Source of the DNA: Torpedo marmorata
Lineage: Eukaryota
NCBI GenBank assembly: GCA_977017645.1
Contig: OZ360230.1
Coordinates: 32,798,001-32,862,000 of the forward strand
Length of the DNA stretch: 64,000 nt
Reading direction: 5' to 3'
Shown: one piece after another, positions 1-64,000 of the stretch
Layout: the number at the start of each line of letters is the position of its first letter
How positions within the stretch are numbered: position 1 is the first letter of the stretch
The notes under the pieces: model-generated
What the model saw: only the letters and a program-made list of their open reading frames with translations
Told to the model about the DNA's origin: nothing
Database searches by the model: none
Position numbers and translations under genes: made by a program

Positions 1-511
1 AACTGTAAATTTGTCTTGTCGTGTCTCTACATAAACTAACGTAATGATTCAACAACAATACCTTTGCCATGTGTGTGACGAATTCAAATGTCAAAAGGGG
101 CTTCACAACAAGAACTAAACATCAGACTGCAGTGATTGGTGCCAAATACACAATCATTTACACGCTCTATTTTATATTTTCAAAATCCTTGCAGTCAGCT
201 GAAGTAATGTTGCCATTAAAATCTATTCAATGGTTTAGCAAGGACTGATGCACAAGTAAGTAACAGTGAAAAGTTCACAATTTTGCCCAACTATTCACTC
301 ATCACTTGCTGTGACATGGAACCTTCCTCACTTCGAAAATAATCAACAGTCACAAGGTATCCCTTGCAACATTGCTATTACACAAACTATTTGTCATAAG
401 AAAGGAAATAAAATTAATTCACTGTTACATCGTCTGTTTAAACCATGTATTAGAGCAGCTTGAACATACTCTGATGTATTTTAACTAAATGCAATGTGTA
501 TCAATTTAAAG

Positions 512-604
512 GAACACTATCTACAACGACAGAAGGAAGTACCTCGTCAGTGGAAAGTACAACTTTCAGCTCTTCAACAACAGAGCCAACATCAACGTCA
601 ACAG
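512..604 (+). CDS. PTS exon A, unit 1
   Basis: tttaaag|GAACA...ACAG|gtaaca; 93 nt, phase 1-1, open. Confidence 0.8.
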
Positions 605-3600
605 GTAACATCAATGGGCACCGAGGCTTTGTATGTTGGCAGGGATGAGTTACAAATTGTAAAAATATACCTCAAATCAAATATGTGCTTGGTGTATTGT
701 CCAAACTGCATGTCATCAGAAAGGTTAAACTGTTCAAGGTCATTCCCGTATGGAAATTCTGTGGTGTGAAATGTTCTGATCAATATAAATTATGTACATA
801 TTAATGCTCAGGGGGGCATAGGTTGCATCCCTACGTGATGAATTCCATGTTAAGTCGTATACTTCAGAGCAGTCACTTCAACAGGATGGAATGAATTGAG
901 GGATTAACGATAAACATTCATTGTACAAGTACGAGAAAATATTCCAATCAATCTTAAAAACTAGCAATCATCTGGATGATGACTCCTATTTGACAGGATG
1001 TCACACTTTATTTTCAATTATTGGTATCCATTTCTTCTTCTCAGTATCATTTCCCCTTCAAAAATGTAATGCTCTGTTGTATAATAAGCTGTTTCATTAC
1101 ATCCAGAGAGTCAACTTGACTTTAACATCAGCACGTTTTGTCTTCATTTTCAGTATCAGAACAAAGCACGATCACTCTGGCTCCTTCAACTACCTCTGCT
1201 ACAAGTAGTGAAACAACAGGTAGATTTATACATCAAAAGTATCAATACAATACATTGCAGATATGACAGTGGCTTTTAAGGGGCTGCCAGATAGACGCGT
1301 GAATATACGGGGAACAACGGGTTAAGTAACAATGAAAACACGAGAGAATTTGTAAATTTAGGCATCAGGTAAATTGCTGACATAATGAGACCTTGGGCCG
1401 ATTCCGGTGCAGTTCTGTTCTATTGTCCAGGTTCCCCACAGTCATGTATTCTCTCAATTCAATTGATGATTGGAGATGCTTGATAAATTTCTCTTCAGAT
1501 TTCTGAACTGCTGAAGAAAATCATTTTCACTTTATAGTTCCATGCAATGAATCAGTGAACTATTGCGTAGATATGGCATATTTGAGAAAAAAAAATTCTT
1601 AAAAATAACCATTGGTCTTGCAAGACGAGACCACGTGTGAATTTGCATTTTTTATGCCTCCACATTATAAAATCTAACTATTAAAATAAAAATGGCTTTG
1701 CCGTCACAGTAAAGCGTTCAAATAACTAAATTGCCCAGCTCACTCAAATAACCAAGCAGAATTTCAACCTAATCAAATGAATATTAAGCTGTAGTCACTG
1801 CTGTCATATATGCATTCACTTTCTGGCTGTAATATCCTTTTCAAACATTTTCTACTCTTTTTTTTTTTAAATAATTTTATTTAAATTTTAAAATCACAAA
1901 ATACATAAATCAAAAATACTATATCATTCCAAATACATGTGATATATTTCCCCCCCTCCCACCCTCCGCTCCCCAACCCCCCAGCACTATTCAAAAAAAA
2001 AAAAAAAAAAAAAAAATAGTTATAAAGAAAAAAAAAGAAAAGAATTGAATAATAAAGAATTAAAGTGAGGAGAAAACAAATTACAAGCTAATTCTATTTA
2101 TATATTGGAGGTTAGTTTTGCCAGCGGCACCAACTTCTAGAGAATGAATTTATACCCATAATTCTCATATATGGGCTCCAAATTTTCAAAAAGAAATGGT
2201 ATTTATTACGTAAATTATATGTAATTTTTTCCAATGGTATACAAGAACGTAATTCTGCATGTAATCTATCTAAATTCAAATCTAAATCTGATTTCCAAGT
2301 AATAGCAATACATTTTTTTGAAACCGCTAAAACAATTCGCAAAAATTCTTGAAACCGCTAAAACTATTCGCAAAAATTCTTGAAACCGCTAAAGCAATTC
2401 GCAAAATTTCAAACACATTCTACTCTTGTAAGATCCAGATAGTTTTGAAATCTAACAAATAATTCAATAATGGTTAACCAACAAATAAATATCTATGCCA
2501 AATCTACAACTTTTAACTTCAACTATTCGTTGATATTTCATGGAGGTTTCTTCAAGATAAATAAACATGCAGTTCCATGACATCAGTTGACAACTACGTT
2601 ATTGCATTCTGAAATACTTGGCATCAGAAAGGAAATGAAAGTAATTTGAATAGAGATCTGACTTCCAGGATCATTGAAACAATGTCTAGAACATAGAACG
2701 AGAACATAGAACAATTCAGCACAGTACAGGCCCTTCGGCCTTTGATGTTGTGCCGACCCACATAATCCTTCATAAAAAAAAAGTACTAAATCCTCGCTAA
2801 CCTATAACCATCTATTTCTCTTTCATCCATGTGTCTCTCTAAGTGTCTTTTAAATTTCCCCAATGTTTCAACATCCACCACCATCCCTGGCAATGCATTC
2901 CAGGCACCCACAACTCTCTGTGTAAAAAACCTACCCCTGATGTTTACCCTAAACTTTCCTCCATTAACTTTGTACATATGTCCTATGGTGTTTGCAGATC
3001 CTGCCCTGGGAAACAGGTGCTGGCTGTCCACCCTATCTATGCCTCTCATAATCTTGTAGATCTCCATTAAGTCTCCTCTCATCCTTCTGCACTCCAAAGA
3101 GAAAGGTCCCAGCTCTGCTAACCTTGCCTCAACAGACTTGTTTCCCAATCCAGCCAACATCCTGGTAAATTTCCGCTGCACCCTCTCCATAGCTTCCACA
3201 TATTTCCTATAATCAGGTGACCAGAACTGAACACAATACTTACAAAAGATTTGTGGAGTTGCAACATGACCTCTCTTCTACTGAATTCAATCCCCCTAAT
3301 AGTGAATCCCAGCATCACATATGCCTTTTTAAATATCCTGTCAACCTGTGTGGCGACCTTGAGGGATGTATGGATTTGTACCGCATGGTCCAAATGTTCA
3401 TCCACACTCTTAAATATCCAACCATTAACCCTGTATTCAGCATTCTGGTTTGTCCTTCCAAAATGCATCACCTCACACTTATCCGGATTGAAATCCATCT
3501 GCCACTTTTCTGCCCAACTCAGCATCCTTTCAAAATCCTCTTGTAAACTTCGACAACCTTCAGCTCCATCTACAACTCCTCCAACCTTCGTGTCATCTGC

Positions 3601-6600
3601 AAACTTACTGACCCATCCGTCCGCCTCTTCATCCAGGTCATTTATAAAAATCACAAAGAGCAGGGGTCCCAGAACAGATCTAATAGCAGCTTTCCATGCC
3701 TCTATGTATTTTAACAATCATTTTTCACATATTTCAAGGAACTACATCTGTGACAACAGAACCAAGCACCTCCACCGAGCAAATTACATCTTTGACAACT
3801 TCTACAACAGAGTCAACATCATTTGTCACAGGTAACCAATCATAACCTGCTACTCCAATTGTTGGCATGGAATACATTGTAAGAGTAAAAGTATTGTCTC
3901 GTTCACGTAATCTCTTGTGGAGCTATGCAAGGCGAGAGACCTGACTGTCATCAGAAAGGATCATCAAGTCAGGCTCATGCCCCGATGAAATGACAGTTGC
4001 ATCCAAGTTTTGATTGAAGGAAATTACTGGCAAAAATTAATCCTCAAGTGTCAGTTTGGAAAATCAGTGTTTAATAAATACATATTTCAACTTCAAAAAC
4101 CAAAAGTTGATTGAAATGATCATGCAGATTTCTTCGCGTTCACTTCAAACTGTTGCCATTTTTTGCTGAGGCAAAATGAGTAAGCTTTTGGTGCATATTA
4201 CTAAGAACAAATTTCAACCATTGCTCGAGGCTGACAGTTATCCACCTCATGTTGATCCTGACTCTAATTTGTCAGGATGCTACATATAATGTTCAATACT
4301 GGCTTAGATTTTATTTTCCTTAATTTCATGCTTGCCTCTGTAATTTAACTGCATTATCATATAATAAGAAATTTTATTGTATCCAGATAATTGTTGCCTT
4401 TAACATCCATGCATGCCTGAATTTATTTTCAGTCTCAGAAACAAGCACGGCCACCACTGCCCCTTCTACCACTCCAGGCACAAGCAGCGAGACAACAGGT
4501 AAATCATGCACCATATACGTATCCACCGTTCGGTCTTCTCTCCCAGTCAATATTTCCTCTTGATGCAAATTAAAAACAGTAGCGATGGCTGATGTTTAAA
4601 GCTTGAAAGATTCTTCATCATGGCTAAACACAGTTCCATTCTGTGATTCAATGAAAAATTTCACAGATTAAGCATATTTGCGACAGCAGATTTAAGAAAA
4701 ATAATCAGATGCCCAGCAAGATGAAAATCTAACTGTAAATTTGTCTTGTCGTGTCTCTACATAAACTAACGTAATGATTCAACAACAATACCTTTGCCAT
4801 GTGTGTGACGAATTCAAATGTCAAAAGGGGCTTCACAACAAGAACTAAACATCAGACTGCAGTGATTGGTGCCAAATACACAATCATTTACACGCTCTAT
4901 TTTTTATTTTCAAATTCCTTGCAGTCAGCTAAAGTAATGTTGCCATTAAAATCTATTCAATGGTTTATCAAGGACTGACGCACAAGTAGGTAACGGTGAA
5001 AAGTTCACAATTTTGCCCAACTATTCACTCATCACTTGCTGTGACATGGAACCTTCTTCACTTCGAAAATAATCAACAGTCACAAGGTATCCCTTGCTAC
5101 ATTGCTATTACACAAACTATTTGTCATAAGAAAGGAAATAAAATTAATTCACTGTTACATCGTCTGTTTAAACCATGTATTAGAGCAGCTTGAACATACT
5201 CTGATGTATTTTAACTAAATGTAATGTGTATCAATTTAAAGGAACTCTATCTACAACGACAGAAGGAAGTACCTCGTCAGTGGAAAGTACAACTTTCAGC
5301 TCTTCAACAACAGAGCCAACATCAACGTCAACAGGTAACATCAATGGGCACCGAGGCTTTGTATGTTGGCAGGGATGTGTTACAAATTGTAAAAATATAC
5401 CTCCAATCAAATATGTGCTTGGTGTATTGTCCAAGGCTGCATGTCATCAGAAAGGTTAAACTGTTCAACGTCATTCCCGTATGGAAATTCTGTGGTGTGA
5501 AATGTTCTGATCAATATAAATTATGTACATATTAATGCTCAGGGAGGCATAGGTTGCATCCCTGCGTGATGAATTCCATGTGAAGTCGTATACTTCAGAG
5601 CAGTCACTTCAACAGGATGGAATGAATTGAGGGATTAACGATAAACATTCATTGTACAAGTACGAGAAAATATTCCAATCAATCTTAAAAACTAGCAATC
5701 ATCTGAATGGTGACTCGTATTTGACAGGATGTCACACTTTATTTTCAATTATTGGTAACCATTTCTTTTCTCAGTTTCATTTCCCCTTCAAAAATGTAAG
5801 TGCTCTGTTGTATAATAAGCTGTTTCATTACATCCAGAGAGTCAACTTGACTTTAACATCAGCACGTTTTGTCTTCATTTTCAGTATCAGAACAAAGCAC
5901 GACCATCTTGGCTCCTTCAACCACCTCTGCTACAAGTAGTGAAACAACAGGTAGATTTATACATCAAAAGTATCAATACAATACATTGCAGATATGACAG
6001 TGGCTTTTTAGTGGCTTCCAGATAGAAGCGTGAATATACGGGGAAAAACGGGCTGAGTAACATTAAAAGCACGAGAAATTTTGGAAATGTTGGCATCAGG
6101 TAAATCTTTGACATAATGAGATCTTGGGCCGATTTCGGTGCAGTTCTGTTCTATTGTCCAGGTTCACCACAGTCATGTATTCTCTCAATTCAAGTGATGA
6201 TTGGAGATGCTTGATAAATTTCTCTTCAGATTTCTGAACTGCTGAAGAAAATCATGTTCACTTTATAGTTCCATGCACTGAATCTGTGAACTATTCCGTA
6301 GATATGGCATATTTGAGATTAAAAATACTTAAGAATAACCATTGGTCTTGCAAGACGAGAACACGTGTGAATTTGCATTTTTTATGCCTCCACATTATAA
6401 AATCTAACTATTAAAATAAAAATGGCTTTGCCGTCACTGTAAAGCGTTCAAATAACAAAATTGCCCAGCTCACTTAAATAACCAAGCAGAATTCAACCTA
6501 ATCAAATGAATATTAAGCTGTAGTCACTGCTGTCATATATGCATTCACTTTCTGGCTCTTACATCCTTTTCAAACACATTCAACTCATGTAAAATCCAGA

Positions 6601-9600
6601 TAATTTTGAAATCTAACAAATAATTCATCAATGGACAACCAAAAAATAAATATCGATGCCAATTCTACAACATTTACCTTTAACTATTCATTGATATTTC
6701 ATGGAGGTTCCCTTCAAGATAAACATGCAGTTCCATGACATCAGTTGCCAACTATGTTATTGCATTCTGAAATACTTAGCATCAGAAAGGAAATGAAAGT
6801 AATTTGAATAGAGATCTGACTTCCAGGATCGTTGAATCTAAGTCTAGAACAGAGAAGCTAGAACATGGAACAATTCAGCACAGTACAGGCCCTTCGGCCT
6901 TTGATGTTGTGTCGACCCACATGTTCCTTCCTAAAAAAAAGTACTAAACCATCCGTACCCTATAACCCTCTATTTCTCTTTCATCCATGTGTCTGTCCAA
7001 GTGTCTTTTAAATTCCCCCAATGTTTCAACATCCACCACCACCCCCGGCAATGCATTCCAGGCACTCACAACTCTCTGTGCAAACAACATACCCCTGATG
7101 TCTCCCCTAAACTTCACTCCATTAAATTTGTACATATGTCCTCTGGTGTTTGCAGATCCTGCCCTGGGAAACAGGTGCTGGCTGTCCACCCTATCTATGC
7201 CTCTCATAATCTTATAGACCTCCATCAAGTCTCCTTTCATCCTTCTGCACTCCAAAGAGAAAGGTCCCAGCTCTGCTAACCTTGCCTCAACAGACTTGTT
7301 TCCCAATCCAGCCAACATCTTGGTAAATTTCCGCTGCACCCTCTCCATAGCTTCCACATATTTCCTATAATCAGGTGACCAGAACTGAACACAATACTTA
7401 CAAAAGATTTGTGGAGTTGCAACATGACCTCTCTTCTCCTGAATTCAATCCCCCTAATAATGAATCCCAGCATCACATATGCCTTTTTAAATATCCTGTC
7501 AACCTGTGCGGCGACCTTGAGGGATGTATGGATTTGTACCGCATGGTCCAAATGTTCATCCACACTCTTAAATATCCAACCATTAACCCTGTATTCAGCA
7601 TTCTGGTTTGTCCTTCCAAAATGCATCACCTCACACTTATCCGGATTGAAATCCATCTGCCACTTTTCTGCCCAACTCAGCATCCTTTCAAAATCCTCTT
7701 GTAAACTTCGACAACCTTCAGCTCCATCTACAACTCCTCCAACCTTCGTGTCATCCGCAAACTTACTGACCCATCCTTCCCCCTCTTCATCCAGGTCATT
7801 TATAAAAATCACAAAGAGCAGGGGTCCCAGAACAGATCTAATAGCAGCTTTCCGTGCCTCTATGTATTTTAACAATCATTTTCACATATTTCAAGGAACA
7901 ACATCTGTGACAACAGAACCAAGCACCTCCACCGAGCAAATTACATCTTTGACAACTTCTACAACAGAGTCAACATCATTTGTCACAGGTAATTTCAATA
8001 ATAACCTGCTACTCCAAATATTGGCATGGAATACATTGTAAGAGTAAAAATATTGTCTCGTTCACGTAATCTCTTGTGGAGCTATGCAAGGCGAGAGACC
8101 TGACTGTCATCAGAAAGGATCATCGAGTCAGGCTCATGCCCCGATGAAATGACAGTTGCATCCAAGTTTTGATTGAAGGAAATTACTGGGAAATTAATCC
8201 TCAAGTGTTAGTTTGGAAAATCAGTGTTTAATAAGTACATATTTTCAACGTCAAAAACCAAAATTTGATTGAAATGATCATGCAGATTTCTTCGCGTTCA
8301 CTTCAAACTGTTGTCATTTTTTGCTGAGGCAAAATGGGTAAGCTTTTGGTGCATTTTACTAAGAAAAATTTTCAACCATTGCTCGAGGCTGACAGTTCTC
8401 AACATCATGTTGATCCTGACTCTAATTTGTCAGGATGCAACATATAATGTTCAATACTGGGTTAGAATTTATTTTCCTTAATTTCATGCTTGCCTCTGTA
8501 ATTTAACTGCATTATCGTATATTAAGAAATTTTATTGTATCCAGATAATTGTTGCCTTTAACATCAACGCCTGCCTGAATTTATTTTCAGTCTCAGAAAC
8601 AAGCACGGCCACCACTGCCCCTTCTACCACTCCAGGCACAAGCAGCGAGACAACAGGTACAATCATGCACCATATACGTATCGACCGTTCGGTCTTCTCT
8701 CCCAGTCAATATTTCCTCTTGATGCAAATTAAAAACAGTAGCGATGCCTGATGTTTAAAGCTGAAAAGATTCTTCATCATTGTTAAACATAGTTCCATTC
8801 TGTGATTCAATGAAAAATTGCAATGATAAAGCATATTTGCAACAGCAGATTTAAGAAAAATAATCAGATGCCCAGCAAGATGAAAATCTAACTGTAAATT
8901 TGTCTTGTCGTGTCTCTACATAAACAAACGTAATGATTCGACAACAATACCTTTGCCATGTCTGTGACGAATTCAAATGTCAAAAGGGGCTTCACATCAA
9001 GCACTAAACATCAGACTGCAGTGATTGGGGCCAGATACACAATCATTTACACACTCTATTTTTTATTTTCAAAATCCTTGCAGTCAGCTAAAGTAATGTT
9101 GCCATTAAAATCTATTCAATGGTTTATCAAGGACTGACGCACAAGTAGGTAACGGTGAAAAGTTCACAATTTTGCCCAACTATTCACTCATCACTTGCTG
9201 TGACATGGAACCTTCTTCACTTCGAAAATAATCAACAGTCACAAGGTATCCCTTGCAACATTGCTATTACACGAGCTATTTGTCCTAAGAAAGGAAATAA
9301 AATTAATTCACTGTTACATCGTCTGTTTAAACCATGTATTAGAGCAGCTTGAACATACTCTGATGTATTTTAACTAAATGTAATGTGTATCAATTTAAAG
9401 GAACTCTATCTACAACGACAGAAGGAAGTACCTCGTCAGTGGAAAGTACAACTTTCAGCTCTTCAACAACAGAGCCAACATCAACGTCAACAGGTAACAT
9501 CAATGGGCACCGAGGCTTTGTATGTTGGCAGGGATGTGTTACAAATTGTAAAAATATACCTCCAATCAAATATGTGCTTGGTGTATTGTCCAAGGCTGCA

Positions 9601-54600: not shown

Positions 54601-57600
54601 AATTTAATGCTTGCCTCTGTAATTTAACTGCAATATCATATATTAAGAAATTTTATTGTATCCAGATAATTGTTGCCTTTAACATCAACGCATGCCTGAA
54701 TTTATTTTCAGTATCAGAAACAAGCACAGCCACCACTGCCCCTTCTACCACTCCAGGCACAAGCAGCGAGACAACAGGTACAATCATGCACCATATACGT
54801 ATCCACCGTTCGGTCTTCTCTCCCAGTCAATATTTCCTCATGATGCAAATTAAAAACAGTAGCGATGCCTGATGTTTAAAGCTGAAAAGATTGTTCATCA
54901 TGGCTAAACACAGTTCCATTCAGTGATTCAATGAAAAATTGCACAGATAAAGCATATTTGCGACAGCAGATTTAAGAAAAATAATCAGATGCCCAGCAAG
55001 ATGAAAATCTAACTGTAAATTTGTCTTGTCGTGTCTCTACATAAACTAACGTAATGATTCGACAACAATACCTTTGCCATGTCTGTGACGAATTCAAATG
55101 TCAAAAGGGGCTTCACATCAAGCACTAAACATCAGACTGCAGTGATTGGTGTCAAATACACAATCATTTACACGCTCTATTTTTTATTTTCAAATTCCTT
55201 GCAGTCAGCTAAAGTAATGTTGCCATTAAAATCTATTCAATGGTTTATCAACGACGGACGCACAAGTAGGTAATGGTGAAATGTTCACAATTTTGCCCAA
55301 CTATTTACTCATCACTTGCTGTGACATGGAACCTTCTTCACTTCGAAAATAATCAACAGTCACAAGGTATCCCTTGCAACATTGCTATTACACAAACTAT
55401 TTGTCATAAGAAAGGAAATAAAATTAATTCACTGTTACATCATCTGTTTAAACCATGTATTAGAGCAGCTTGAACATACTCTGATGTATTTTAACTAAAT
55501 GTAATGTGTATCAATTTAAAGGAACTCTATCTACAACGACAGAAGGAAGTACCTCGTCAGTGGAAAGTACAACTTTCAGCTCTTCAACAACAGAGCCAAC
55601 ATCAACGTCAACAGGTAACATCAATGGGCACCGAGGCTTTGTATGTTGGCAGGGATGAGTTACAAATTGTAAAAATATACCTCCAATCAAATATGTGCTT
55701 GGTGTATTGTCCAAGGCTGCATGTCATCAGAAAGGTTAAACTGTTCAAAGTCATTCCCGTATGGAAATTCTGTGGTGTGAAATGTTCTGATCAATATAGG
55801 TTATGTACATATTAATGCTCAGGGGGGCATAGGTTGCATCCCTGCGTGATGAATTCCATGTTAAGTCGTATACTTCAGAGCAGTCACTTCAACAGGATGG
55901 AATGAATTGAGGGATTAACGATAAATAATGAGACCTTGGGCCGATTCCGGTGCAGTTCTGTTCTATTGTCCAGGTTCCCCACAGTCATATATTCTCTCAA
56001 TTCAAGTGATGATTGGAGATGCTTGATAAATTTCTGTTCGGATTTCTGAACTGCTGAAGAAAATCATGTTCACTTTATAGTTCCATGCACTGAATCAGTG
56101 AACTATTCCGTAGATATGGCATATTTGAGAAAAGAAAATTCTTAAAAATAACCATTGGTATTGCAAGACGAGAACACGTGTGAATTTGCATTTTTTATGC
56201 CTCCACATTATAAAATCTAACTATTAAAATAAAAATGGCTTTGCCGTCACTGTAAAGCGTTCAAATAACAAAATTGCCCAGCTCACTCAAATAACCAAGC
56301 AGAATTCAACCTAATCAAATGAATATTAGGCTGTAGTCACTGCTGTCATATATGCATTCACTTTCTGGCTCTAATATCCTTTTCAAACACATTCTACTCT
56401 TGTAAGATCCAGATACTTTTGAAATCTAACATATAATTCAATAATGGATAACCAACAAATAAATATCTATGCCAATTCTACAACTTTTACCTTTAACTAT
56501 TCATTGATATTTCATGGAGGTTTCTTCAAGATAATTAAACATGCAGTTCCATGACATCAGTTGCCAACTACGTTATTGCATTCTGAAATACTTGGCATCG
56601 GAAAGGAAATGAAAGTAATTTGAATAGAGATCTGACTTCCAGGATCGTTGAATCTATGTCTAGATCATAGAAGCTAGAACATAGAAAAATTCAGCACAGT
56701 ACAGGCCCTTCAGCCCTCGATGTTGCGCCGATCCACATATTCCTTCCTAAAAAAAAGTACTAAATCCTCCCTACCCTATAACCCTCTATTTCTCTTTCAT
56801 CCATGTGTCTCTCTAAGTGTCTTTTAAATTAACCCAATGTTTCAACGTCCACCACCATCCCCGGCAATGCATTCCAGGCACCCACAACTCTCTGTGTAAA
56901 AAACCTACCCCTGATGTCTCCCCTAAACGTCCCTCCATTAACTTTGTACATATGTCCTCTGGTGTTTGCAGATCCTGCCCTGGGAAACAGGTGCTGGCTG
57001 TCCACCCTATCTATGCCTCTCATAATCTTGTAGACCTCCATCAAGTCTCCTCTCATCCTTCTGCACTCCAAAGAGAAAGGTCCCAGCTCTGCTAACCTTG
57101 CCTCAACAGACTTGTTTCCCAATCCAGCCAACATCATGGTAAATTTCCGTTGCACCCTCTCCATAGCTTCCACATATTTCCTATAATCAGGTGACCAGAA
57201 CTGAACACAATACTTATCAAAGATTTGTGGAGTTGCAACATGACCTCTCTACTCCTGAATTCAATCCCCCTAATAATGAATCCCAGCATCACATATGCCT
57301 TTTTAAATATCCTGTCAACCTGTGCAGCGACGTTGAGGGATGTATGGATTTGCACCGCATGGTCCAAATGTTCATCCACACTCTTAAATATCCGACCATT
57401 AACCCTGTACTCAGCATTCTGGTTTGTCCTTCCAAAATGCATCACCTCACACTTATTCGGATTGAAATCCATCTGCCACTTTTCTGCCCAACTCTGCATC
57501 CTGTCAAAATCCTCTTGTAAACTTCGACAACCATCAGCTCCATCTACAACTCCTCCAACCATCGTGTCATCCGCAAACCTACTGACCCATTCTTCCACCT

Positions 57601-60600
57601 CTTCATCCAGGTCATTTATAAAAATCACAAAGAGCAGGGGTCCCAGAACAGATCTAATAGCAGCTTTCCATGCCTCTATGTATTTTAACAATAATTTTCA
57701 CATATTTCAAGGAACAACATCTGTGACAACAGAACCAAGCACCTCCACCGAGCAAATTACATCTTTGACCACTTCTACAACAGAGTCAACATCATTTGTC
57801 ACAGGTAACATCAATAATAACCTGCTACTCCAAATGTTGGCATGGAATACATTGTAAGAGTAAAAATATTGTCTCGTTCACGTAATCTCTTGTGGAGCTA
57901 TGCAAGGCGAGAGACCTGACTGTCATCAGAAAGGATCATCGAGTCAGGCTCATGCCCCGATGAAATGACAGTTGCATCCAAGTTTTGATTGAAGGAAATT
58001 ACTGGCAAAAATTAATCCTCAAGTGTCAGTTTGGAAAATCAGTGTTTAATAAATACATATTTCAACTTCAAAAACCAAAAGTTGATTGAAATGATCATGC
58101 AGATTTCTTCGCGTTCAGTTCAAACTGTTGTCATTTTTTCTGAGGCAAAATGGGTAAGCTTTTGGTGCATATTACTAAGAAAAAATTTCAACCATTGCTC
58201 GGCGCTGACAGTTATCAACCTCATGTTGATCCTGACTCTAATTTGTCAGGATGCAACATATAATGTTCAATACTGGCTTAGAATTTATTTTCCTTAATTT
58301 AATGCTTGCCTCTGTAATTTAACTGCATTATCATATATTAAGAAATTTTACTGTATCCAGATAATTGTTGCCTTTAACATCAACGCATGCCTGAATTTAA
58401 TTTCAGTCTCAGAAACAAGCACGGCCACCACTGCCCCTTCTACCACTCCAGGCACAAGCAGCGAGACAACAGGTACAATCATGCACCATATACGTATCCA
58501 CTGTTCGGTCTTCTCTCCCAGTCAATATTTCCTCTTGATGCAAATTAAAAACAGTAGCGATGCCTGATGTTTAAAGCTGAAAAGATTCTTCATCATGGCT
58601 AAACACAGTTCCATTCTGTGATTCAATGAAAAATTGCACAGATAAAGCATATACGACAGCAGATTTAAGAAAAATAATCAGATGCCCAGCAAGATGAAAA
58701 TCTAACTGTAAATTTGTCTTGTCGTGTCTCTACGTAAACTAACGTAATGATTCGACAACAATACCTTTGCCATGTCTGTGACGAATTCAAATGTCAAAAG
58801 GGGCTTCACATCAAGAACTAAACATCAGACTGCAGTGATTGGTGCCAAATACACAATCATTTACACGCTCTATTTTTTATTTTCAAAATCCTTGCAGTCA
58901 GCTGAAGTAATGTTCCATTAAAATCTATTCAATGGTTTATCAAGGACTGACGCACAAGTAGGTAACGGTGAAAAGTTCACAATTTTGCCCAACTATTCAC
59001 TCACCACTTGCTGTGACATGGAACCTTCTTCACTTCGAAAATAATCAACAGTCACAAGGTATCCCTTGCAACATTGCTATTACACAAACTATTTGTCATA
59101 AGAAAGGAAATAAAATTAATTCACTGTTACATCATCTGTTTAAACCATGTATTAGAGCAGCTTGAACATACTCTGATGTATTTTAACTAAATGTAATGTG
59201 TATCAATTTAAAGGAACTCTGTCTACAACGACAGAAGGAAGTACCTCGTCAGTGGAAAGTACAACTTTCAGCTCTTCAACAACAGAGCCAACATCAACGT
59301 CAACAGGTAACATCAATGGGCACCGAGGCTTTGTATGTTGGCAGGGATGAGTTACAAATTGTAAAAATATACCTCCAATCAAATATGTTCTTGGTGTATT
59401 GTCCAAGGCTGCATGTCATCAGAAAGGTTAAAGTGTTCAAAGTCATTCCCGTATGGAAATTCTGTGGTGTGAAATATTCTGATCAATATAGGTTATGTAC
59501 ATATTAATGCTCAGGGGGGCATAGGTTGCATCCCTGCGTGATGAATTCCATGTTAAGTCGTATACTTCAGAGCAGTCACTTCAACAGGATGGAATGAATT
59601 GAGGGATTAACGATAAATAATGAGACCTTGGGCCGATTCCGGTGCAGTTCTGTTCTATTGTCCAGGTTCCCCACAGTCATATATTCTCTCAATTCAAGTG
59701 ATGATTGGAGATGCTTGATAAATTTCTCTTCGGATTTCTGAACTGCTGAAGAAAATCATGTTCACTTTATAGTTCCATGCACTGAATCAGTGAACTATTC
59801 CGTAGATATGGCATATTTGAGAAAAGAAAATTCTTAAAAATAACCATTGGTATTGCAAGACGAGAACACGTGTGAATTTGCATTTTTTATGCCTCCACAT
59901 TATAAAATCTAACTATTAAAATAAAAATGGCTTTGCCGTCACTGTAAAGCGTTCAAATAACAAAATTGCCCAGCTCACTCAAATAACCAAGCAGAATTCA
60001 ACCTAATCAAATGAATATTAAGCTGTAGTCACTGCTGTCATATATGCATTCACTTTCTGGCTCTAATATCCTTTACAAACACATTCTACTCTTGTAAGAT
60101 CCAGATACTTTTGAAATCTAACATATAATTCAATAATGGATAACCAACAAATAAATATCTATGCCAATTCTACAACTTTTACCTTTAACTATTCATTGAT
60201 ATTTCATGGAGGTTTCTTCAAGATAATTAAACATGCAGTTCCATGACATCAGTTGCCAACTACGTTATTGCATTCTGAAATACTTGGCATCAGAAAGGAA
60301 ATGAAAGTAATTTGAATAGAGATCTGACTTCCAGGATCGTTGAATCTATGTCTAGATCATAGAAGCTAGAACATAGAAAAATTCAGCACAGTACAGGCCC
60401 TTCAGCCCTCGATGTTGCGCCGATCCACATATTCCTTCCTAAAAAAAAGAACTAAATCCTCCCTACCCTATAACCCTCTATTTCTCTTTCATCCATGTGT
60501 CTCTCTAAGTGTCTTTTAAATTAACCCAATGTTTCAACATCCACCACCATCCCCGGCAATGCATTCCAGGCACACACAACTCTCTGTGTAAAAAACCTAC

Positions 60601-63000
60601 CCCTGATGTCTCCCCTAAACCTCCCTCCATTAACTTTGTACATATGTCCTCTGGTGTTTGCAGATCCTGCCCTGGGAAACAGGTGCTGGCTGTCCACCCT
60701 ATCTATTCCTCTCATAATCTTGTAGACCTCCATCAAGTCTCCTCTCATCCTTCTGCACTCCAAAGAGAAAGGTCCCAGCTCTGCTAACCTTGCCTCAACA
60801 GACTTGTTTCCCAATCCAGCCAACATCATGGTAAATTTCCGTTGCACCCTCTCCATAGCTTCCACATATTTCCTATAATCAGGTGACCAGAACTGAACAC
60901 AATACTTATCAAAGATTTGTGGAGTTGCAACATGACCTCTCTACTCCTGAATTCAATCCCCCTAATAATGAATCCCAGCATCACATATGCCTTTTTAAAT
61001 ATCCTGTCAACCTGTGCAGCGACGTTGAGGGATGTATGGATTTGCACCGCATGGTCCAAATATTCATCCACACTCTTAAATATCCGACCATTAACCCTGT
61101 ACTCAGCATTCTGGATTGTCCTTCCAAAATGCATCACCTCACACTTATCCGGATTGAAATCCATCTGCCACTTTTCTGCCCAACTCTGCATCCTGTCAAT
61201 ATCCTCTTGTAAACTTCGACAACCTTCAGCTCCATCTCCAACTCCTCCAACCTTCGTGTCATCCGCAAACTTACTGACCCATCCTTCCGCCTCTTCATCC
61301 AGGTTATTTATAAAAATCACAAAGAGCAGGGGTCCCAGAACAGATCTAATAGCAGCTTTCCATGCCTCTATGTATTTTAACAATCATTTTTCACATAATT
61401 CAAGGAACTACATCTGTGACAACAGAACCAAGCACCTCCACAGAGCAAATTACATCTTTGACAACTTCTACAACAGAGTCAACATCATTTGTCACAGGTA
61501 ACATCAATCATAACCTGCTACTCCAAATGTTGGCATGGAATACATTGTAAGAGTAAAAATATTGTCTCTTTCACGTAATCTCTTGTGGAGCTATGCAAGG
61601 CGAGAGACCTGACTGTCATCAGAAAGGATCATCGAGTCAGGCTCATGCCCCGATGAAATGACAGTTGCATCCAAGTTTTGATTGAAGGAAATTACTGGCA
61701 AAAATTAATCCTCAAGTGTCAGTTTGGAAAATCAGTGTTTAATAAATACATATTTCAACTTCAAAAACCAAAAGTTGATTGAAATGATCATGCAGATTTC
61801 TTCGCGTTCAGTTCAAACTGTTGTCATTTTTTCTGAGGCAAAATGGGTAAGCTTTTGGTGCATATTACTAAGAAAAAATTTCAACCATTGCTCGGCGCTG
61901 ACAGTTATCAACCTCATGTTGATCCTGACTCTAATTTGTCAGGATGCAACATATAATGTTCAATACTGGCTTAGAATTTATTTTCCTTAATTTAATGCTT
62001 GCCTCTGTAATTTAACTGCATTATCATATATTAAGAAATTTTACTGTATCCAGATAATTGTTGCCTTTAACATCAACGCATGCCTGAATTTAATTTCAGT
62101 CTCAGAAACAAGCACGGCCACCACTGCCCCTTCTACCACTCCAGGCACAAGCAGCGAGACAACAGGTACAATCATGCACCATATACGTATCCACTGTTCG
62201 GTCTTCTCTCCCAGTCAATATTTCCTCTTGATGCAAATTAAAAACAGTAGCGATGCCTGATGTTTAAAGCTGAAAAGATTCTTCATCATGGCTAAACACA
62301 GTTCCATTCTGTGATTCAATGAAAAATTGCACAGATAAAGCATATACGACAGCAGATTTAAGAAAAATAATCAGATGCCCAGCAAGATGAAAATCTAACT
62401 GTAAATTTGTCTTGTCGTGTCTCTACGTAAACTAACGTAATGATTCGACAACAATACCTTTGCCATGTCTGTGACGAATTCAAATGTCAAAAGGGGCTTC
62501 ACATCAAGCACTAAACATCAGACTGCAGTGATTGATGCCAAATACACAATCATTTACACGCTCTATTTTTTATTTTCAAAATCCTTGCAGTCAGCTAAAG
62601 TAATGTTGCCATTAAAATCTATTCAATGGTTTAGCAAGGACTGACGCACAAGTAGGTAACGGTGAAAAGTTCACAATTTTGCCCAACTATTCACTCACCA
62701 CTTGCTGTGACATGGAACCTTCCTCACTTCGAAAATAATCAACAGTCACAAGGTATCCCTTGCAACATTGCTATTACACAAACTATTTGTCATAAGAAAG
62801 GAAATAAAATTAATTCACTGTTACATCATCTGTTTAAACCATGTATTAGAGCAGCTTGAACATACTCTGATGTATTTTAACTAAATGCAATGTGTATCAA
62901 TTTAAAGGAACTCTATCTACAACGACAGAAGGAAGTACCTCGTCAGTGGAAAGTACAACTTTCAGCTCTTCAACAACAGAGCCAACATCAACGTCAATAG
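512..63000 (+). CDS. Internal portion of a multi-exon mucin-like (PTS, Ser/Thr-rich) glycoprotein gene: 51 cassette-exon copies (14 A, 11 B, 13 C, 13 D); likely extends beyond both window ends
   Basis: Each unit has four AG..GT-bounded segments of 93/66/93/66 nt, all phase 1-1 and open in one frame: [31 protein letters not shown] / [22 protein letters not shown] / [31 protein letters not shown] / [22 protein letters not shown]. The Ser/Thr codon bias is confined to these segments. No transcript evidence is available. Confidence 0.85.
1154..1219 (+). CDS. PTS exon B, unit 1
   Basis: ttttcag|TATCAG...ACAG|gtagat; 66 nt, phase 1-1, open. Confidence 0.8.
1860..2406 (-). mobile_element. 5'-truncated L1 LINE (ORF2 C-terminus, 3' UTR, poly(A))
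   Basis: Poly(T) at ~1858-1868. ORF 2112-2342 ([14 protein letters not shown]...CIPLEKITY) matches the ORF2 end at 20083-20661. Imperfect 21-bp TSD tttcaaaca(tt/ca)ttctactctt at 1839-1859 and 2407-2427. Absent from the other units. Confidence 0.92.
2687..3680 (-). mobile_element. 5'-truncated CR1-clade LINE (HER1-like), unit 1 copy
   Basis: RT motifs SVLGPLLF and [26 protein letters not shown]1 C-terminus [14 protein letters not shown], degenerate (TTCTATG)n tail; frameshifted. Confidence 0.93.
3739..3831 (+). CDS. PTS exon C, unit 1
   Basis: tttcaag|GAACT...ACAG|gtaacc; 93 nt, phase 1-1, open. Confidence 0.8.
4433..4498 (+). CDS. PTS exon D, unit 1
   Basis: ttttcag|TCTCAG...ACAG|gtaaat; 66 nt, phase 1-1, open. 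Confidence 0.8.
5242..5334 (+). CDS. PTS exon A, unit 2
   Basis: AG/GT intact, 93 nt, open. Confidence 0.8.
5885..5950 (+). CDS. PTS exon B, unit 2
   Basis: AG/GT intact, 66 nt, open. Confidence 0.8.
6845..7838 (-). mobile_element. CR1 LINE fragment, unit 2 copy
   Basis: Same truncation point and frameshift as the unit 1 copy. Confidence 0.93.
7896..7988 (+). CDS. PTS exon C, unit 2
   Basis: AG/GT intact, 93 nt, open. Confidence 0.8.
8591..8656 (+). CDS. PTS exon D, unit 2
   Basis: AG/GT intact, 66 nt, open. Confidence 0.8.
9401..9493 (+). CDS. PTS exon A, unit 3
   Basis: AG/GT intact, 93 nt, open. Confidence 0.8.
10044..10109 (+). CDS. PTS exon B, unit 3
   Basis: AG/GT intact, 66 nt, open. 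Confidence 0.8.
11004..11996 (-). mobile_element. CR1 LINE fragment, unit 3 copy
   Basis: Same truncation point and frameshift as the unit 1 copy. Confidence 0.93.
12054..12146 (+). CDS. PTS exon C, unit 3
   Basis: AG/GT intact, 93 nt, open. Confidence 0.8.
12749..12814 (+). CDS. PTS exon D, unit 3
   Basis: AG/GT intact, 66 nt, open. Confidence 0.8.
13559..13651 (+). CDS. PTS exon A, unit 4
   Basis: AG/GT intact, 93 nt, open (ends ...STSK). Confidence 0.78.
14203..14268 (+). CDS. PTS exon B, unit 4
   Basis: AG/GT intact, 66 nt, open. Confidence 0.8.
16710..17888 (+). mobile_element. Solo LTR 1 (1179 bp; probably Ty3/Gypsy-type) nested in L1 ORF2
   Basis: TGTTATG...CGTAACA termini, 4-bp TSD gtag (16706-16709, 17889-17892), AATAAA at 17798, no internal coding domains. 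Superfamily is inferred from the termini and TSD length only. Confidence 0.88.
18249..19146 (+). mobile_element. Solo LTR 2 (898 bp; related but distinct family) nested in L1 ORF2
   Basis: TGTTATG...TGTAACA termini, 4-bp TSD ggct (18245-18248, 19147-19150), AATAAA at 19076. Confidence 0.88.
21052..22042 (-). mobile_element. CR1 LINE fragment, unit 4 copy
   Basis: Same truncation point and frameshift as the other copies. Confidence 0.93.
22100..22179 (+). pseudogene. Dead exon C, unit 4 (pseudo-exon)
   Basis: Acceptor caag mutated to caac (22099), plus a 13-nt internal deletion (80 nt instead of 93). Confidence 0.85.
22783..22848 (+). CDS. PTS exon D, unit 4
   Basis: AG/GT intact, 66 nt, open. 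Confidence 0.8.
23594..23686 (+). CDS. PTS exon A, unit 5
   Basis: AG/GT intact, 93 nt, open. Confidence 0.8.
   Translation, partial: EHYLQRQKEVPRQWKVQLSALQQQSQHQRQ
24238..24303 (+). CDS. PTS exon B, unit 5
   Basis: AG/GT intact, 66 nt, open. Confidence 0.8.
25203..26197 (-). mobile_element. CR1 LINE fragment, unit 5 copy
   Basis: Same truncation point and frameshift as the other copies. Confidence 0.93.
26256..26348 (+). CDS. PTS exon C, unit 5
   Basis: AG/GT intact, 93 nt, open. Confidence 0.8.
26952..27017 (+). CDS. PTS exon D, unit 5
   Basis: AG/GT intact, 66 nt, open. Confidence 0.8.
27763..27855 (+). CDS. PTS exon A, unit 6
   Basis: AG/GT intact, 93 nt, open. Confidence 0.8.
28407..28472 (+). 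CDS. PTS exon B, unit 6
   Basis: AG/GT intact, 66 nt, open. Confidence 0.8.
29367..30331 (-). mobile_element. CR1 LINE fragment, unit 6 copy (27-bp deletion variant)
   Basis: Same boundaries; lacks the VDSQHLFPR codons. Confidence 0.93.
30389..30481 (+). CDS. PTS exon C, unit 6
   Basis: AG/GT intact, 93 nt, open. Confidence 0.8.
31091..31150 (+). CDS. PTS exon D, unit 6, with shifted acceptor (60 nt) or skipped
   Basis: Normal acceptor ttcag is now ttcat (31084). The next AG (ttctcag, 31089-31090) is 6 nt downstream and keeps the frame. Confidence 0.55.
31884..31976 (+). CDS. PTS exon A, unit 7
   Basis: AG/GT intact, 93 nt, open. Confidence 0.8.
   Translation, partial: DLYLQRQKEVPPQWKVRLSAHQQQSQHQRQ
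32528..32558 (+). pseudogene. Broken exon B, unit 7 (31 nt, in-frame TAG)
   Basis: 35-nt internal deletion gives ...AGC ACG TAG TGA; the AG and GT splice sites are unchanged. Confidence 0.8.
33452..34435 (-). mobile_element. CR1 LINE fragment, unit 7 copy
   Basis: Same boundaries; 11-bp deletion near the tail. Confidence 0.93.
34493..34585 (+). CDS. PTS exon C, unit 7
   Basis: AG/GT intact, 93 nt, open. Confidence 0.8.
35187..35252 (+). CDS. PTS exon D, unit 7
   Basis: AG/GT intact, 66 nt, open. Confidence 0.8.
35998..36090 (+). CDS. PTS exon A, unit 8
   Basis: AG/GT intact, 93 nt, open. Confidence 0.8.
36408..38150 (-). mobile_element. 5'-truncated Rex1/Babar-clade LINE
   Basis: Interrupts the unit sequence acattca|ttgtacaag. 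(TTCTGA)n 3' tail, seen as (tcagaa)4 at ~36405-36428. RT ORF with [50 protein letters not shown] and KFADD, typical of Rex1/Babar. Confidence 0.9.
36561..38099 (-). CDS. Rex1/Babar reverse transcriptase ORF (N-terminally truncated, uninterrupted for 512 codons)
   Basis: ORF track; full set of RT motifs; endonuclease domain missing because of 5' truncation. Confidence 0.85.
38381..38446 (+). CDS. PTS exon B, unit 8
   Basis: AG/GT intact, 66 nt, open. Confidence 0.8.
39340..40323 (-). mobile_element. CR1 LINE fragment, unit 8 copy
   Basis: Same boundaries; shares the 11-bp tail deletion with unit 7. Confidence 0.93.
40381..40473 (+). CDS. PTS exon C, unit 8
   Basis: AG/GT intact, 93 nt, open. 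Confidence 0.8.
41077..41142 (+). CDS. PTS exon D, unit 8
   Basis: AG/GT intact, 66 nt, open ([22 protein letters not shown]). Confidence 0.78.
41886..41978 (+). CDS. PTS exon A, unit 9
   Basis: AG/GT intact, 93 nt, open. Confidence 0.8.
   Translation, partial: ELYLQRKKEVPPQWKVRLSVHQQQSQLQRQ
42530..42595 (+). CDS. PTS exon B, unit 9
   Basis: AG/GT intact, 66 nt, open. Confidence 0.8.
43489..44456 (-). mobile_element. CR1 LINE fragment, unit 9 copy (27-bp deletion variant)
   Basis: Same boundaries; shares the deletion with units 6 and 10. Confidence 0.93.
44514..44606 (+). CDS. PTS exon C, unit 9
   Basis: AG/GT intact, 93 nt, open. Confidence 0.8.
45209..45274 (+). CDS. PTS exon D, unit 9
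   Basis: AG/GT intact, 66 nt, open. Confidence 0.8.
46019..46111 (+). CDS. PTS exon A, unit 10
   Basis: AG/GT intact, 93 nt, open. Confidence 0.8.
   Translation, partial: DLYLQRQREVPPQWKVRLSAHQQQSQLQRQ
46663..46728 (+). CDS. PTS exon B, unit 10
   Basis: AG/GT intact, 66 nt, open. Confidence 0.8.
47622..48589 (-). mobile_element. CR1 LINE fragment, unit 10 copy (27-bp deletion variant)
   Basis: Same boundaries; shares the deletion with units 6 and 9. Confidence 0.93.
48649..48741 (+). CDS. PTS exon C, unit 10
   Basis: AG/GT intact, 93 nt, open. Confidence 0.8.
49345..49410 (+). CDS. PTS exon D, unit 10
   Basis: AG/GT intact, 66 nt, open. Confidence 0.8.
50155..50244 (+). CDS. PTS exon A, unit 11 (one Thr codon deleted)
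   Basis: AG/GT intact, 90 nt, in-frame 3-nt deletion. Confidence 0.8.
50714..51912 (+). mobile_element. 5'-truncated L1 LINE of a second subfamily
   Basis: 13-bp TSD aaaaatgtaagtg (50701-50713, 51913-51925). Frameshifted ORF2 C-terminus (HSTWLCPKV...[14 protein letters not shown]...CIPLERITY), G-rich 3' UTR, A-rich tail. Confidence 0.94.
52008..52073 (+). CDS. PTS exon B, unit 11
   Basis: AG/GT intact, 66 nt, open. Confidence 0.8.
52965..53959 (-). mobile_element. CR1 LINE fragment, unit 11 copy
   Basis: Same truncation point and frameshift as the other copies. Confidence 0.93.
54017..54109 (+). CDS. PTS exon C, unit 11
   Basis: AG/GT intact, 93 nt, open. Confidence 0.8.
54712..54777 (+). 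CDS. PTS exon D, unit 11
   Basis: AG/GT intact, 66 nt, open. Confidence 0.8.
55522..55614 (+). CDS. PTS exon A, unit 12
   Basis: AG/GT intact, 93 nt, open; exon B is deleted in this unit. Confidence 0.8.
56661..57654 (-). mobile_element. CR1 LINE fragment, unit 12 copy
   Basis: Same truncation point and frameshift as the other copies. Confidence 0.93.
57712..57804 (+). CDS. PTS exon C, unit 12
   Basis: AG/GT intact, 93 nt, open. Confidence 0.8.
58407..58472 (+). CDS. PTS exon D, unit 12
   Basis: AG/GT intact, 66 nt, open. Confidence 0.8.
59214..59306 (+). CDS. PTS exon A, unit 13
   Basis: AG/GT intact, 93 nt, open; exon B is deleted in this unit. Confidence 0.8.
60353..61346 (-). mobile_element. 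CR1 LINE fragment, unit 13 copy
   Basis: Same truncation point and frameshift as the other copies. Confidence 0.93.
61405..61497 (+). CDS. PTS exon C, unit 13
   Basis: AG/GT intact, 93 nt, open. Confidence 0.8.
62100..62165 (+). CDS. PTS exon D, unit 13
   Basis: AG/GT intact, 66 nt, open. Confidence 0.8.
62908..63000 (+). CDS. PTS exon A, unit 14 (partial unit)
   Basis: AG/GT intact, 93 nt, open. Confidence 0.8.
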   Translation, partial: ELYLQRQKEVPRQWKVQLSALQQQSQHQRQ

Positions 63001-63143
63001 GTAACATCAATGCGCACCGAGGCTTTGTATGTTGGCAGGGATGAGTTACAAATTGTAAAAATATACCTCCAATCAAATATGTGCTTGGTGTATTGTCCAA
63101 GGCTGCATGTCATCAGAAAGGTTAAACTGTTCAAAGTCATTCC

Positions 63144-63887
63144 TTTTTTTTATTTATTTTTTATTATTTTATTTAAATATTTTAAATCACTTAATACATA
63201 ATTCAAAATATATAGTTTCAAAAAATACAGTGATATAAGTTTCCTCCCCCCACACCCTCCCACCCCTCCCCAACCCCCCCAACCCCACTATTCTAAAAAT
63301 AGAAATAGATTTAAAAAAAAGGAAAAAAAAGAGATTAATAGAGATTAATAATGAGGAGAGAACCATCTGAAAATCATTTTTAATCTGGAGGTTAACCTCG
63401 CCAATAGATCTGATTTCTAAAAAATTTCAAATCCTCAAACCCATAACTCTCATATATGGGCTCCAAATTTTTAAAAAAGAATGATATTTATTACGTAAAT
63501 TATAAGTAATTTTTTCCAGAGGAATACACGAACGAAGTTCTGCATGCCATCTATCTAAATTCAAATCTAAATCTGATTTCCAAGTAATAGCAATACATTT
63601 TTTTGAAACAGCTAAAACAATACGTAAAAATTCTACCTGATACATATTCAATCTATTCCTAATACTAAATTTTCTAATATCTCCAAATAAAAATAACATA
63701 GGATCCATTGGAAACATAACATTAAAAACTCTCTCTAAAAAATTCTTAACTTTAAGCCAAAAATCTTGAATCTTTGGACATAACCATGTAGAATGAACAA
63801 AAGAACCTACTTCATTCTTACATCTAAAGCACAAATCCGACAATGCCGGATTAAATTTCTTTAGTTTTTTTGGTGTTAAGTATAATT
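63144..63887 (-). mobile_element. L1 LINE 3' end (ORF2 C-terminus, 3' UTR, poly(A))
   Basis: Unit sequence breaks at gtcattcc|tttt. ORF 63427-63843 (CFRCKNEVGSFVHSTWLC...) is closely similar to 20083-20661. The second TSD is outside the window. Confidence 0.92.
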
Positions 63888-64000
63888 TTTTTTTTTTAAA
63901 ATATTTTATTTAAAATTTTTAAATCACACAATACACAGTTTAAAACGCAAATTCCTCAAATTACATGTGATACATTTTCACCCCCCCCTCACCCCCCACC
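63886..64000 (-). mobile_element. Second L1 3' tail nested in or abutting the previous L1; runs off the window
   Basis: A new poly(T) followed by aaatattttatttaaaatttttaaatcaca...catgtgata...C-rich tract, closely matching the L1 tail at 1860-1980. Confidence 0.85.

Follow-up and report, generated by a model that had tools for sequence, protein, structure and literature searches.

Mammalian MUC4, a transmembrane mucin, is described with the order signal peptide, tandem-repeat PTS region, NIDO, VWD with a GDPH motif, EGF, transmembrane segment and short tail (PMC8660890). Human mucins carry the repeat in one large exon, and MUC4 repeat alleles in humans range up to 27,843 bp (PMC13345508). Another layout was reported for chicken Muc13, a membrane mucin with one PTS exon for each 20-aa repeat (at least 12 repeats are known) and, in agreement with the precedent named when the DNA studied here was first read, an exon-per-repeat gene; zebrafish Muc13 is built in the same way, and the authors suggested that the layout may be ancestral and that splicing could control length (PMC1552070). 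The SmPoMuc genes of Schistosoma contain a short mucin-repeat exon that is repeated with its introns as ~1-kb blocks, which are >93% identical and undergo concerted evolution (PMC2576457). According to a 2016 paper that cites work of 2007, no animal branching more deeply than Xenopus had an identified Muc4 (PMC4948705), and a predicted zebrafish Muc4 orthologue has since been used (PMC10153415). Our literature search, with most subscription journals outside its coverage, returned no account of a shark or ray MUC4 gene structure, and the terms mucin-4 and muc4 are absent from the accessible text of a shark skin proteomics paper (PMC10707392).

We analyzed a stretch of 64,000 nt (hereafter the window) of the 6.2-Gb genome of Torpedo marmorata (contig OZ360230.1:32,798,001-32,862,000, forward strand). 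The original prediction for this DNA had interpreted a satellite-like array as the exons of a mucin-type domain. Judged from the sequence, the array exons are probably spliced into the O-glycosylated stalk of a predicted MUC4-family membrane mucin, between a signal-peptide-like exon and exons for EGF, NIDO, VWD and transmembrane regions.

A Tandem Array of Short Ser/Thr Exons

The window is occupied by tandem units with k-mer periods of 4,133-4,169 bp and shorter variants of 3,692-3,695 bp, which are ~96% identical and differ from one another by 4.2% on average (Table 1). This array extends past both window edges, by ~72 kb upstream and ~70 kb downstream, and a reverse transcriptase (RT) fragment is present in each unit, as had been proposed for an array that contains a retrotransposon piece and encloses both edges. 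Each unit has four open exons bounded by AG/GT, A (93 nt), B (66 nt), C (93 nt) and D (66 nt), all multiples of three and all in phase 1-1, which reproduces the predicted arrangement exactly. Copy-by-copy counting identified 51 exon copies in the window, 48 of which are intact at canonical sites (3,867 nt), including an A copy at 50155-50244 with an in-frame 3-nt deletion. If the D copy with a rescued acceptor is included, 49 exons with a sum of 3,927 nt are usable, the same figures as in the original prediction. The last units in the window lack exon B. Translation of one actual unit gave 106 aa (T42, S28, E10, P5) with no Cys, Asn, Lys, Arg or Asp, matching the expected repeat with 70/106 Ser+Thr, 10 Glu and 5 Pro, and the coding share of the unit, anticipated at ~8%, was 318/4,159 nt (7.6%). 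A search with the 30-aa A peptide against 1.84 billion representative proteins gave no match at E values up to 0.001, which is uninformative for such a short, low-complexity query. Addition of the 31-nt B copy (Table 1) to the gene model described below resulted in a stop at codon 2330; this copy shifts the frame and thus needs to be skipped if the protein is full-length.

Table 1. Repeat exons, intronic elements and arrays at the locus (window positions, except for the two arrays, which are given in contig positions).
Feature	Position	Strand	Observation
Exon family A, 93 nt, phase 1-1	first 512..604, last 62908..63000	+	14 copies, 14 intact
Exon family B, 66 nt, phase 1-1	first 1154..1219	+	11 copies, 10 intact; none in units past 55522
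Exon family C, 93 nt, phase 1-1	first 3739..3831	+	13 copies, 12 intact
Exon family D, 66 nt, phase 1-1	first 4433..4498	+	13 copies, 12 intact, 1 with shifted acceptor
D copy, normal acceptor lost (canonical start 31085)	31091..31150	+	in-frame AG 6 nt inside would give 60-nt exon
Dead C copy	22100..22179	+	13-nt deletion, AC in place of acceptor AG; skipping expected
B copy with 35-nt deletion, AG/GT kept	32528..32558	+	31-nt frameshifting exon
~1-kb RT (LINE-type) fragment, B-C intron, every unit	2690..3690 (limits approximate)	-	RVT_1, 3.6e-08
Unit-specific insertion, 549 bp	1858..2406		78% like element at 63148-63634
Unit-specific insertion, 5.9-kb LINE	15052..20922	+	endonuclease and RT, frames broken
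Unit-specific insertion, 1.7-kb LINE RT fragment	36408..38149	-	RT match
Unit-specific insertion, 1.2 kb	50714..51912		array comparison
Start of 6.3-kb intronic insertion	63144..64000	-	related to 15052-20922 element, opposite orientation
Main ~4.15-kb exon-intron tandem array	~32,725,800-32,932,000	+	window 1..64000 is its middle
Second array, 3.66-kb period, 60-nt exon	after main array to ~32,993,700	+	copies at 32,948,600-32,992,400

With 92% of each unit non-coding, the array resembles a non-coding satellite with a LINE fragment, whose exons would be chance open stretches. About a quarter of the unit is this fragment, which may be CR1-like; it ends ~50 nt before exon C and was amplified along with each unit. 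However, under a rule that required AG..GT borders, an open frame, at least 20 aa and at least 55% Ser+Thr, each unit contained four exons on the plus strand and none on the minus strand, and none of 100 first-order Markov controls contained such an exon; the rule matched twice in 280 kb of flanking DNA. The exons also show selection signals (see below), and the array occupies exactly the position of the MUC4 tandem repeat, a gene context that largely refutes the satellite interpretation and leaves it a negligible likelihood.

Nearest-neighbor unit pairs were found at fixed spacing, with differences of 0.4% at 8.3 kb and 0-0.1% at 11.4 kb, and an 11.4-kb block is doubled with a difference of 0-0.1% (32,869,904 versus 32,881,289). 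Units at both array ends are more divergent. Near-identical pairs at fixed distances and divergent end units would fit unequal crossing-over, and the proposal that length changes by whole exon-intron blocks is supported in the form of unit gain and loss. The five unit-specific insertions in the window are all located in introns. In the second array, the old acceptor has disappeared from 11 of 11 copies, and an in-frame AG located 6 nt inside the old B/D exon would serve instead, with the frame kept. This acceptor shift is also present in three D copies of the main array.

Selection on the Repeat Exons

Distinct variants were counted against the commonest base of each column in ~34 aligned units, with rates derived from 3,658 intron columns; the repeat copies are related and not independent, so all P values given here are approximate. 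In the main array, synonymous variants were as frequent as expected (33 observed, 33.8 expected), whereas nonsynonymous variants were depleted (55 versus 81.8, P=0.001) and stop variants were absent (0 versus 5.0, P=0.007). For stops in the window alone, the difference (0 versus 2.1) was not significant. Two of the four exon indels are in frame, compared to 6 of 108 in introns (P=0.025), and frameshifting exon indels numbered 2 versus 8.4 expected (P=0.01). In addition, 2 of 3 frameshifted copies had lost the acceptor as well, which was the case for 0 of 149 other copies that lack a rescue AG (P=0.0003). Splice-dinucleotide variants (3 observed, 5.9 expected) did not deviate significantly (P=0.16), and direct comparison of nonsynonymous with synonymous variants gave P values of 0.04 for the main array, 0.45 for an upstream duplicate of the gene (see below) and 0.42 for the pooled data. 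These patterns suggest moderate purifying selection on the repeat exons, a signal of the strength expected of a compositionally constrained mucin repeat.

Exon C appears to be an older duplicate of A, and exon D an older duplicate of B. Length, frame, splice sites and 69% identity have been kept between A and C, whose flanks are near the shuffled level, and pN (0.32) and pS (0.34) show no gap. For B and D, which also share length, frame and sites and are 74% identical, pN was 0.16 and pS 0.50; the intron before these two exons is still ~70% alike.

The variant data bear on an alternative in which the locus is a MUC4-family gene that as a rule skips the majority of its repeat exons or has recently ceased to work, such that the array would be mostly passenger DNA kept intact by recent homogenization. 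Raw divergence is nearly equal in exons (2.3%) and introns (2.5%), the A and C acceptors score weakly under a crude splice-site model, and the frameshifting B copy has both splice sites intact, as would be expected in this case. However, among the same recent variants, depletion affects nonsynonymous, stop and frameshift changes and not synonymous ones. Several downstream EGF exons have acceptor scores as weak as those of A and C, and the 63 of 63 downstream exons used form a chain without an internal stop. Even when the near-neutral ratio between the two young gene copies is considered (see below), we view skipping or recent death of the locus as improbable; the cassettes are likely translated.

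The Predicted Gene Surrounding the Array

The only signal-peptide-like first exon in 308 kb of upstream DNA was found at 32,706,189-252, 92 kb before the window. It contains an ATG, a hydrophobic core and a phase-1 donor; the call was made by a simple hydrophobicity rule, and a counterpart is kept in the upstream duplicate. Downstream, the last Ser/Thr exon (32,993,586-669) is followed 3.1 kb on by the first EGF exon (32,996,795) in a matching phase. Nine phase 1-1 EGF exons separate the Ser/Thr exons from NIDO (PF06119), which was matched in three consecutive exons (E values 5e-06, 1.5e-03 and 4e-06). A Cys/Trp-rich region of three exons, conserved in relatives, lies between NIDO and VWD; neither this region nor two whole relatives matched Pfam AMOP at E values up to 10. 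We further detected a single VWD (PF00094, 2.3e-06) with a GDPH motif at 33,059,68x and a MUC4-type C8 domain (C8-3_MUC4, PF23263, 1.2e-12), followed by a long calcium-binding EGF array (about 30 EGF-type exons past VWD), part of which is itself a tandem exon array. EGF_CA was also among the Pfam matches of the downstream exons, and 39 of these 63 exons match the EGF pattern. Juxtamembrane exons, a transmembrane exon (33,231,464-652) and a last exon with the stop complete the chain. Pfam SEA had no match in the juxtamembrane exons or in the tail of little skate. Neither a second NIDO-VWD module nor a second PTS block was found between the EGF array and the tail, an FN3 exon like that of catshark was not found at the locus, and tblastn searches with relatives did not detect VWD upstream of the array.

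Within the EGF region, ~25 near-identical 120-nt phase 1-1 exons form a tandem exon-intron array at 33,107,000-33,185,700. Thus, the same block amplification occurred on two domain types in one gene.

Joining of the exons in silico resulted in a model of 228 exons over 527,675 bp that encodes 7,168 aa in one frame, with a single terminal stop and with AG/GT at all borders, a perfect record that is partly by construction because the exons were chosen by hand. Five of 168 repeat copies (four frameshifted and one lacking a donor) were left out, as was one EGF copy that also lacks a donor; the model is thus evidence that a full frame can be built and not that this frame is in use. The model includes 164 Ser/Thr exons of 57-96 nt each, which amount to 12,870 nt (4,290 aa) over 272 kb, or 4.7% coding. 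The composition of the stalk is 38% Thr, 26% Ser, 9% Glu and 5% Pro, with 64% Ser/Thr. Flanking exons that provide a start and a stop in the same frame had been set as a test of the original prediction, and a signal-peptide-like exon, EGF, VWD, a transmembrane exon and a stop were found in frame. Between the two options that had been left, a gel protein and a membrane stalk, the transmembrane exon and stop favor the stalk and speak against the gel protein. The stalk of an adhesion GPCR was dropped as a candidate because the chain has a single transmembrane exon at its end, before the stop.

Relatives, Family Identity and Synteny

Searches with the transmembrane exon identified 11 proteins with 63-77% identity, eight of which were named "mucin-4-like"; all named matches were chondrichthyan. 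Among 28 proteins compared, the closest was a "mucin-like protein" of Leucoraja erinacea (XP_055501503.1, 70% over 1,438 aa), which has the order PTS-EGF-NIDO-VWD-EGF-...-TM and an N-terminal PTS period of 20 aa. Two RefSeq isoforms of this skate model differ by 40 aa, or two 20-aa PTS units, which would fit cassette exons. A probably unannotated O-glycoprotein had been proposed, and this needs correction with respect to the gene family: skate and shark relatives are already present among RefSeq predictions under the names "mucin-4-like" or "mucin-like protein". The mucin-type domain of an elasmobranch glycoprotein, on the other hand, is supported by the MUC4-type gene context, with glycosylation presumed. 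Other searches were less specific. The sole match of the first EGF exon was an unrelated nematode protein, the ESM Atlas contained only EGF-transmembrane look-alikes below 0.9, and a PDB search with a relative returned generic EGF matches.

Another possibility is that a separate secreted mucin, which has an end of its own and is unjoined to the EGF-NIDO-VWD-TM gene, includes the Ser/Thr exons. Catshark and sevengill relatives, whose PTS repeats are unrelated to those described here (periods of 34 and 38 aa), would be compatible with such a split; however, in these two models, as in that of skate, a PTS region precedes NIDO. Moreover, the Ser/Thr exons end just 3.1 kb ahead of the first EGF exon, with matching phase, no start or terminal exon was seen when this gap was read by eye, and the Ser/Thr-to-EGF linkage is also present in the upstream duplicate. 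We consider two unjoined genes extremely unlikely, and retain the reading of a single predicted membrane mucin.

TFRC is a neighbor of MUC4. TFR_dimer matches, at most putative TFRC, were detected on another contig only. For the Cdc42-binding domain of ACK1/TNK2 (PF09027), the best match in the whole genome was at 33,513,780, on the same contig and 280 kb past the mucin stop, and a kinase exon at this TNK2 locus matched ACK1 structures (2e-49). At human 3q29, TNK2 is named together with MUC4 and MUC20 (PMC10153415). By domain order and synteny, the predicted gene is a member of the MUC4 family, with human MUC4 compared by description only. Two transmembrane-bearing paralogues lie in tandem at the locus, which makes co-orthology likelier than one-to-one orthology to human MUC4.

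Two other mucin types were considered and rejected. Gel-forming mucins (MUC2/5AC/5B/6), defined by three N-terminal VWD-C8-TIL units, a C-terminal cystine knot and the lack of a transmembrane segment, do not agree with a single VWD after the repeats, a transmembrane exon and the absence of upstream VWD matches in the tblastn searches with relatives. A membrane mucin of the MUC13/SEA type does not agree with the presence of NIDO and VWD and the unmatched Pfam SEA.

A Recent Duplicate and an Older Paralogue

A duplicate of the 5' part of the gene, 97-99% identical, is located ~800 kb upstream (~31,800,000-32,418,000 in the region examined). It possesses its own first exon, its own array (84 copies, 71 intact), 33 of 33 open downstream exons, a different EGF array (~40 EGF exons) and its own insertions. 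A transmembrane tail was not found in the 288 kb that follow it; the duplicate may be a secreted form or a pseudogene, or its transcript may be spliced on to the gene that follows. A tandem duplication of ~59 kb with 99.6-99.8% identity was observed at 32,467,400-32,585,800, in the interval that separates the mucin copies.

In the folded-domain exons, 33 nonsynonymous and 10 synonymous changes separate the two young copies (pN/pS 0.83). Among the 30 residues that changed, 13 changes are assigned to the duplicate and 9 to the present gene, and 8 are unpolarized. This ratio is the main result against full function, and with 9 polarized changes on the present copy, it counts in favor of a skipped or recently dead locus. 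It would fit relaxed or diversifying selection after duplication as well as early decay.

An array length or an 800-kb duplicate that is partly an assembly artefact should also be considered, as the 11.4-kb block is repeated almost without difference and the two gene copies are so similar. Against this, the average difference of 4.2% between units is accompanied by private insertions, 1.66 Mb of the sequence is free of N runs, and the duplicate carries insertions and an EGF array of its own. An artefact of this kind is thus very unlikely.

In the whole genome, the transmembrane exon has just two copies, one in this gene and one in a third paralogue. The latter, which is older, has a NIDO-VWD-EGF-tail organization at 33,375,666-33,437,045 and is 55-63% identical in two tested exons. 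A PTS region or first exon of this paralogue was not found in the 140 kb before it.

Proposed Origin and Function of the Stalk

We propose that an ancestral exon pair (93+66 nt) would have doubled to give A-B-C-D, that a LINE fragment would then have been captured in one intron of the four-exon unit, and that the resulting 4.15-kb block would have been amplified and homogenized by unequal crossing-over or conversion. As all exons are in phase 1-1 and are multiples of three, gain, loss or skipping of any block leaves the frame intact. By analogy with MUC4 biology, the product would be secreted as a type I membrane protein with a densely O-glycosylated stalk, would cleave itself at GDPH, and would be displayed as an O-glycosylated rod in the glycocalyx on the epithelial surface. 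An extended mucin stalk measures ~0.25 nm per residue, and the full stalk of 4,290 aa would therefore reach ~1 micrometre.

A further idea, which is speculative and rather doubtful, is that splicing sets the height of the MUC4 glycocalyx. With ~160 frame-neutral cassettes, one allele could yield stalks from near nothing to ~1 micrometre, depending on tissue or stage. The last EGF exon of the duplicate might also join the cassettes, giving a double-module mucin of >10,000 residues. In this scenario, the split layout would date back to the ancestral MUC4 gene and be the source of the single mammalian repeat exon. Splicing-tuned mucin length within one animal, an idea raised for chicken Muc13 (PMC1552070), can now be tested directly.

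If the stretch of ~270 kb that has the appearance of a retrotransposon satellite is coding, as is likely, shark and ray annotations of this family may miss most of the stalk.

Comparison with Known Mucin Genes

With this locus, a MUC4-family gene is predicted over its full length in a cartilaginous fish, and synteny with TNK2 is retained. Considering the zebrafish orthologue and the "mucin-4-like" names of shark proteins in RefSeq, this is added support and not a first. New features are the exon-per-repeat layout in the MUC4 type and its scale, the four-exon unit that has captured a LINE, and a model of the complete gene.

Mammalian MUC4 is alike in domain order, in the presence of TNK2 nearby and in PTS length, which is in the same range. 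The domain had been predicted to be giant, and it is indeed larger (4,290 aa) than the window shows; for MUC4 it is not giant, as the human allele of 27,843 bp compared to 12,870 coding nt here makes the protein size ordinary. However, the mammalian repeat lies in one exon, whereas here it is distributed over 164 exons and 272 kb, and the one-large-exon layout is a trait of gene layout that does not define the MUC4 protein family. Human MUC4 has three EGF domains, in contrast to nine EGF exons between PTS and NIDO and about 30 EGF-type exons after VWD in this gene. AMOP is unmatched here by Pfam, and the repeat is poor in Pro (5%) and rich in Glu (9%).

Chondrichthyan RefSeq models (Leucoraja erinacea, and the "mucin-4-like" proteins of Mustelus, Cetorhinus, Rhincodon, Hypanus and Heptranchias) belong to the same family and have the same tail. 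The skate model XP_055501503.1 differs in having just ~120 aa of N-terminal PTS, no clear signal peptide and an additional PTS block ahead of the tail; in several shark models, NIDO-VWD occurs again as a second module. Neither the additional block nor the second module was found at this locus. In the Mustelus, Cetorhinus and Hemiscyllium "mucin-4-like" models, an EGF array at the start, like that of this gene, is followed by PTS and a second, divergent NIDO-VWD. These three models may represent the 3' halves of a double-module gene, the second module of which may be missing in skate and in this genome.

SmPoMuc resembles the present locus in the multiplication of a short repeat exon with its introns as genomic blocks. 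It differs in that these are secreted mucins of a flatworm with a 27-bp exon and at most ~20 copies per gene, and MUC4 domains are unmentioned in the accessible text (PMC2576457). Chicken Muc13 is likewise a membrane mucin with one exon per PTS repeat. It is of the SEA type and uses one exon type, in contrast to the MUC4 type and four exon types described here; the design is thus extended from Muc13 to MUC4-type mucins, with >10 times the number of exons reported for chicken Muc13.
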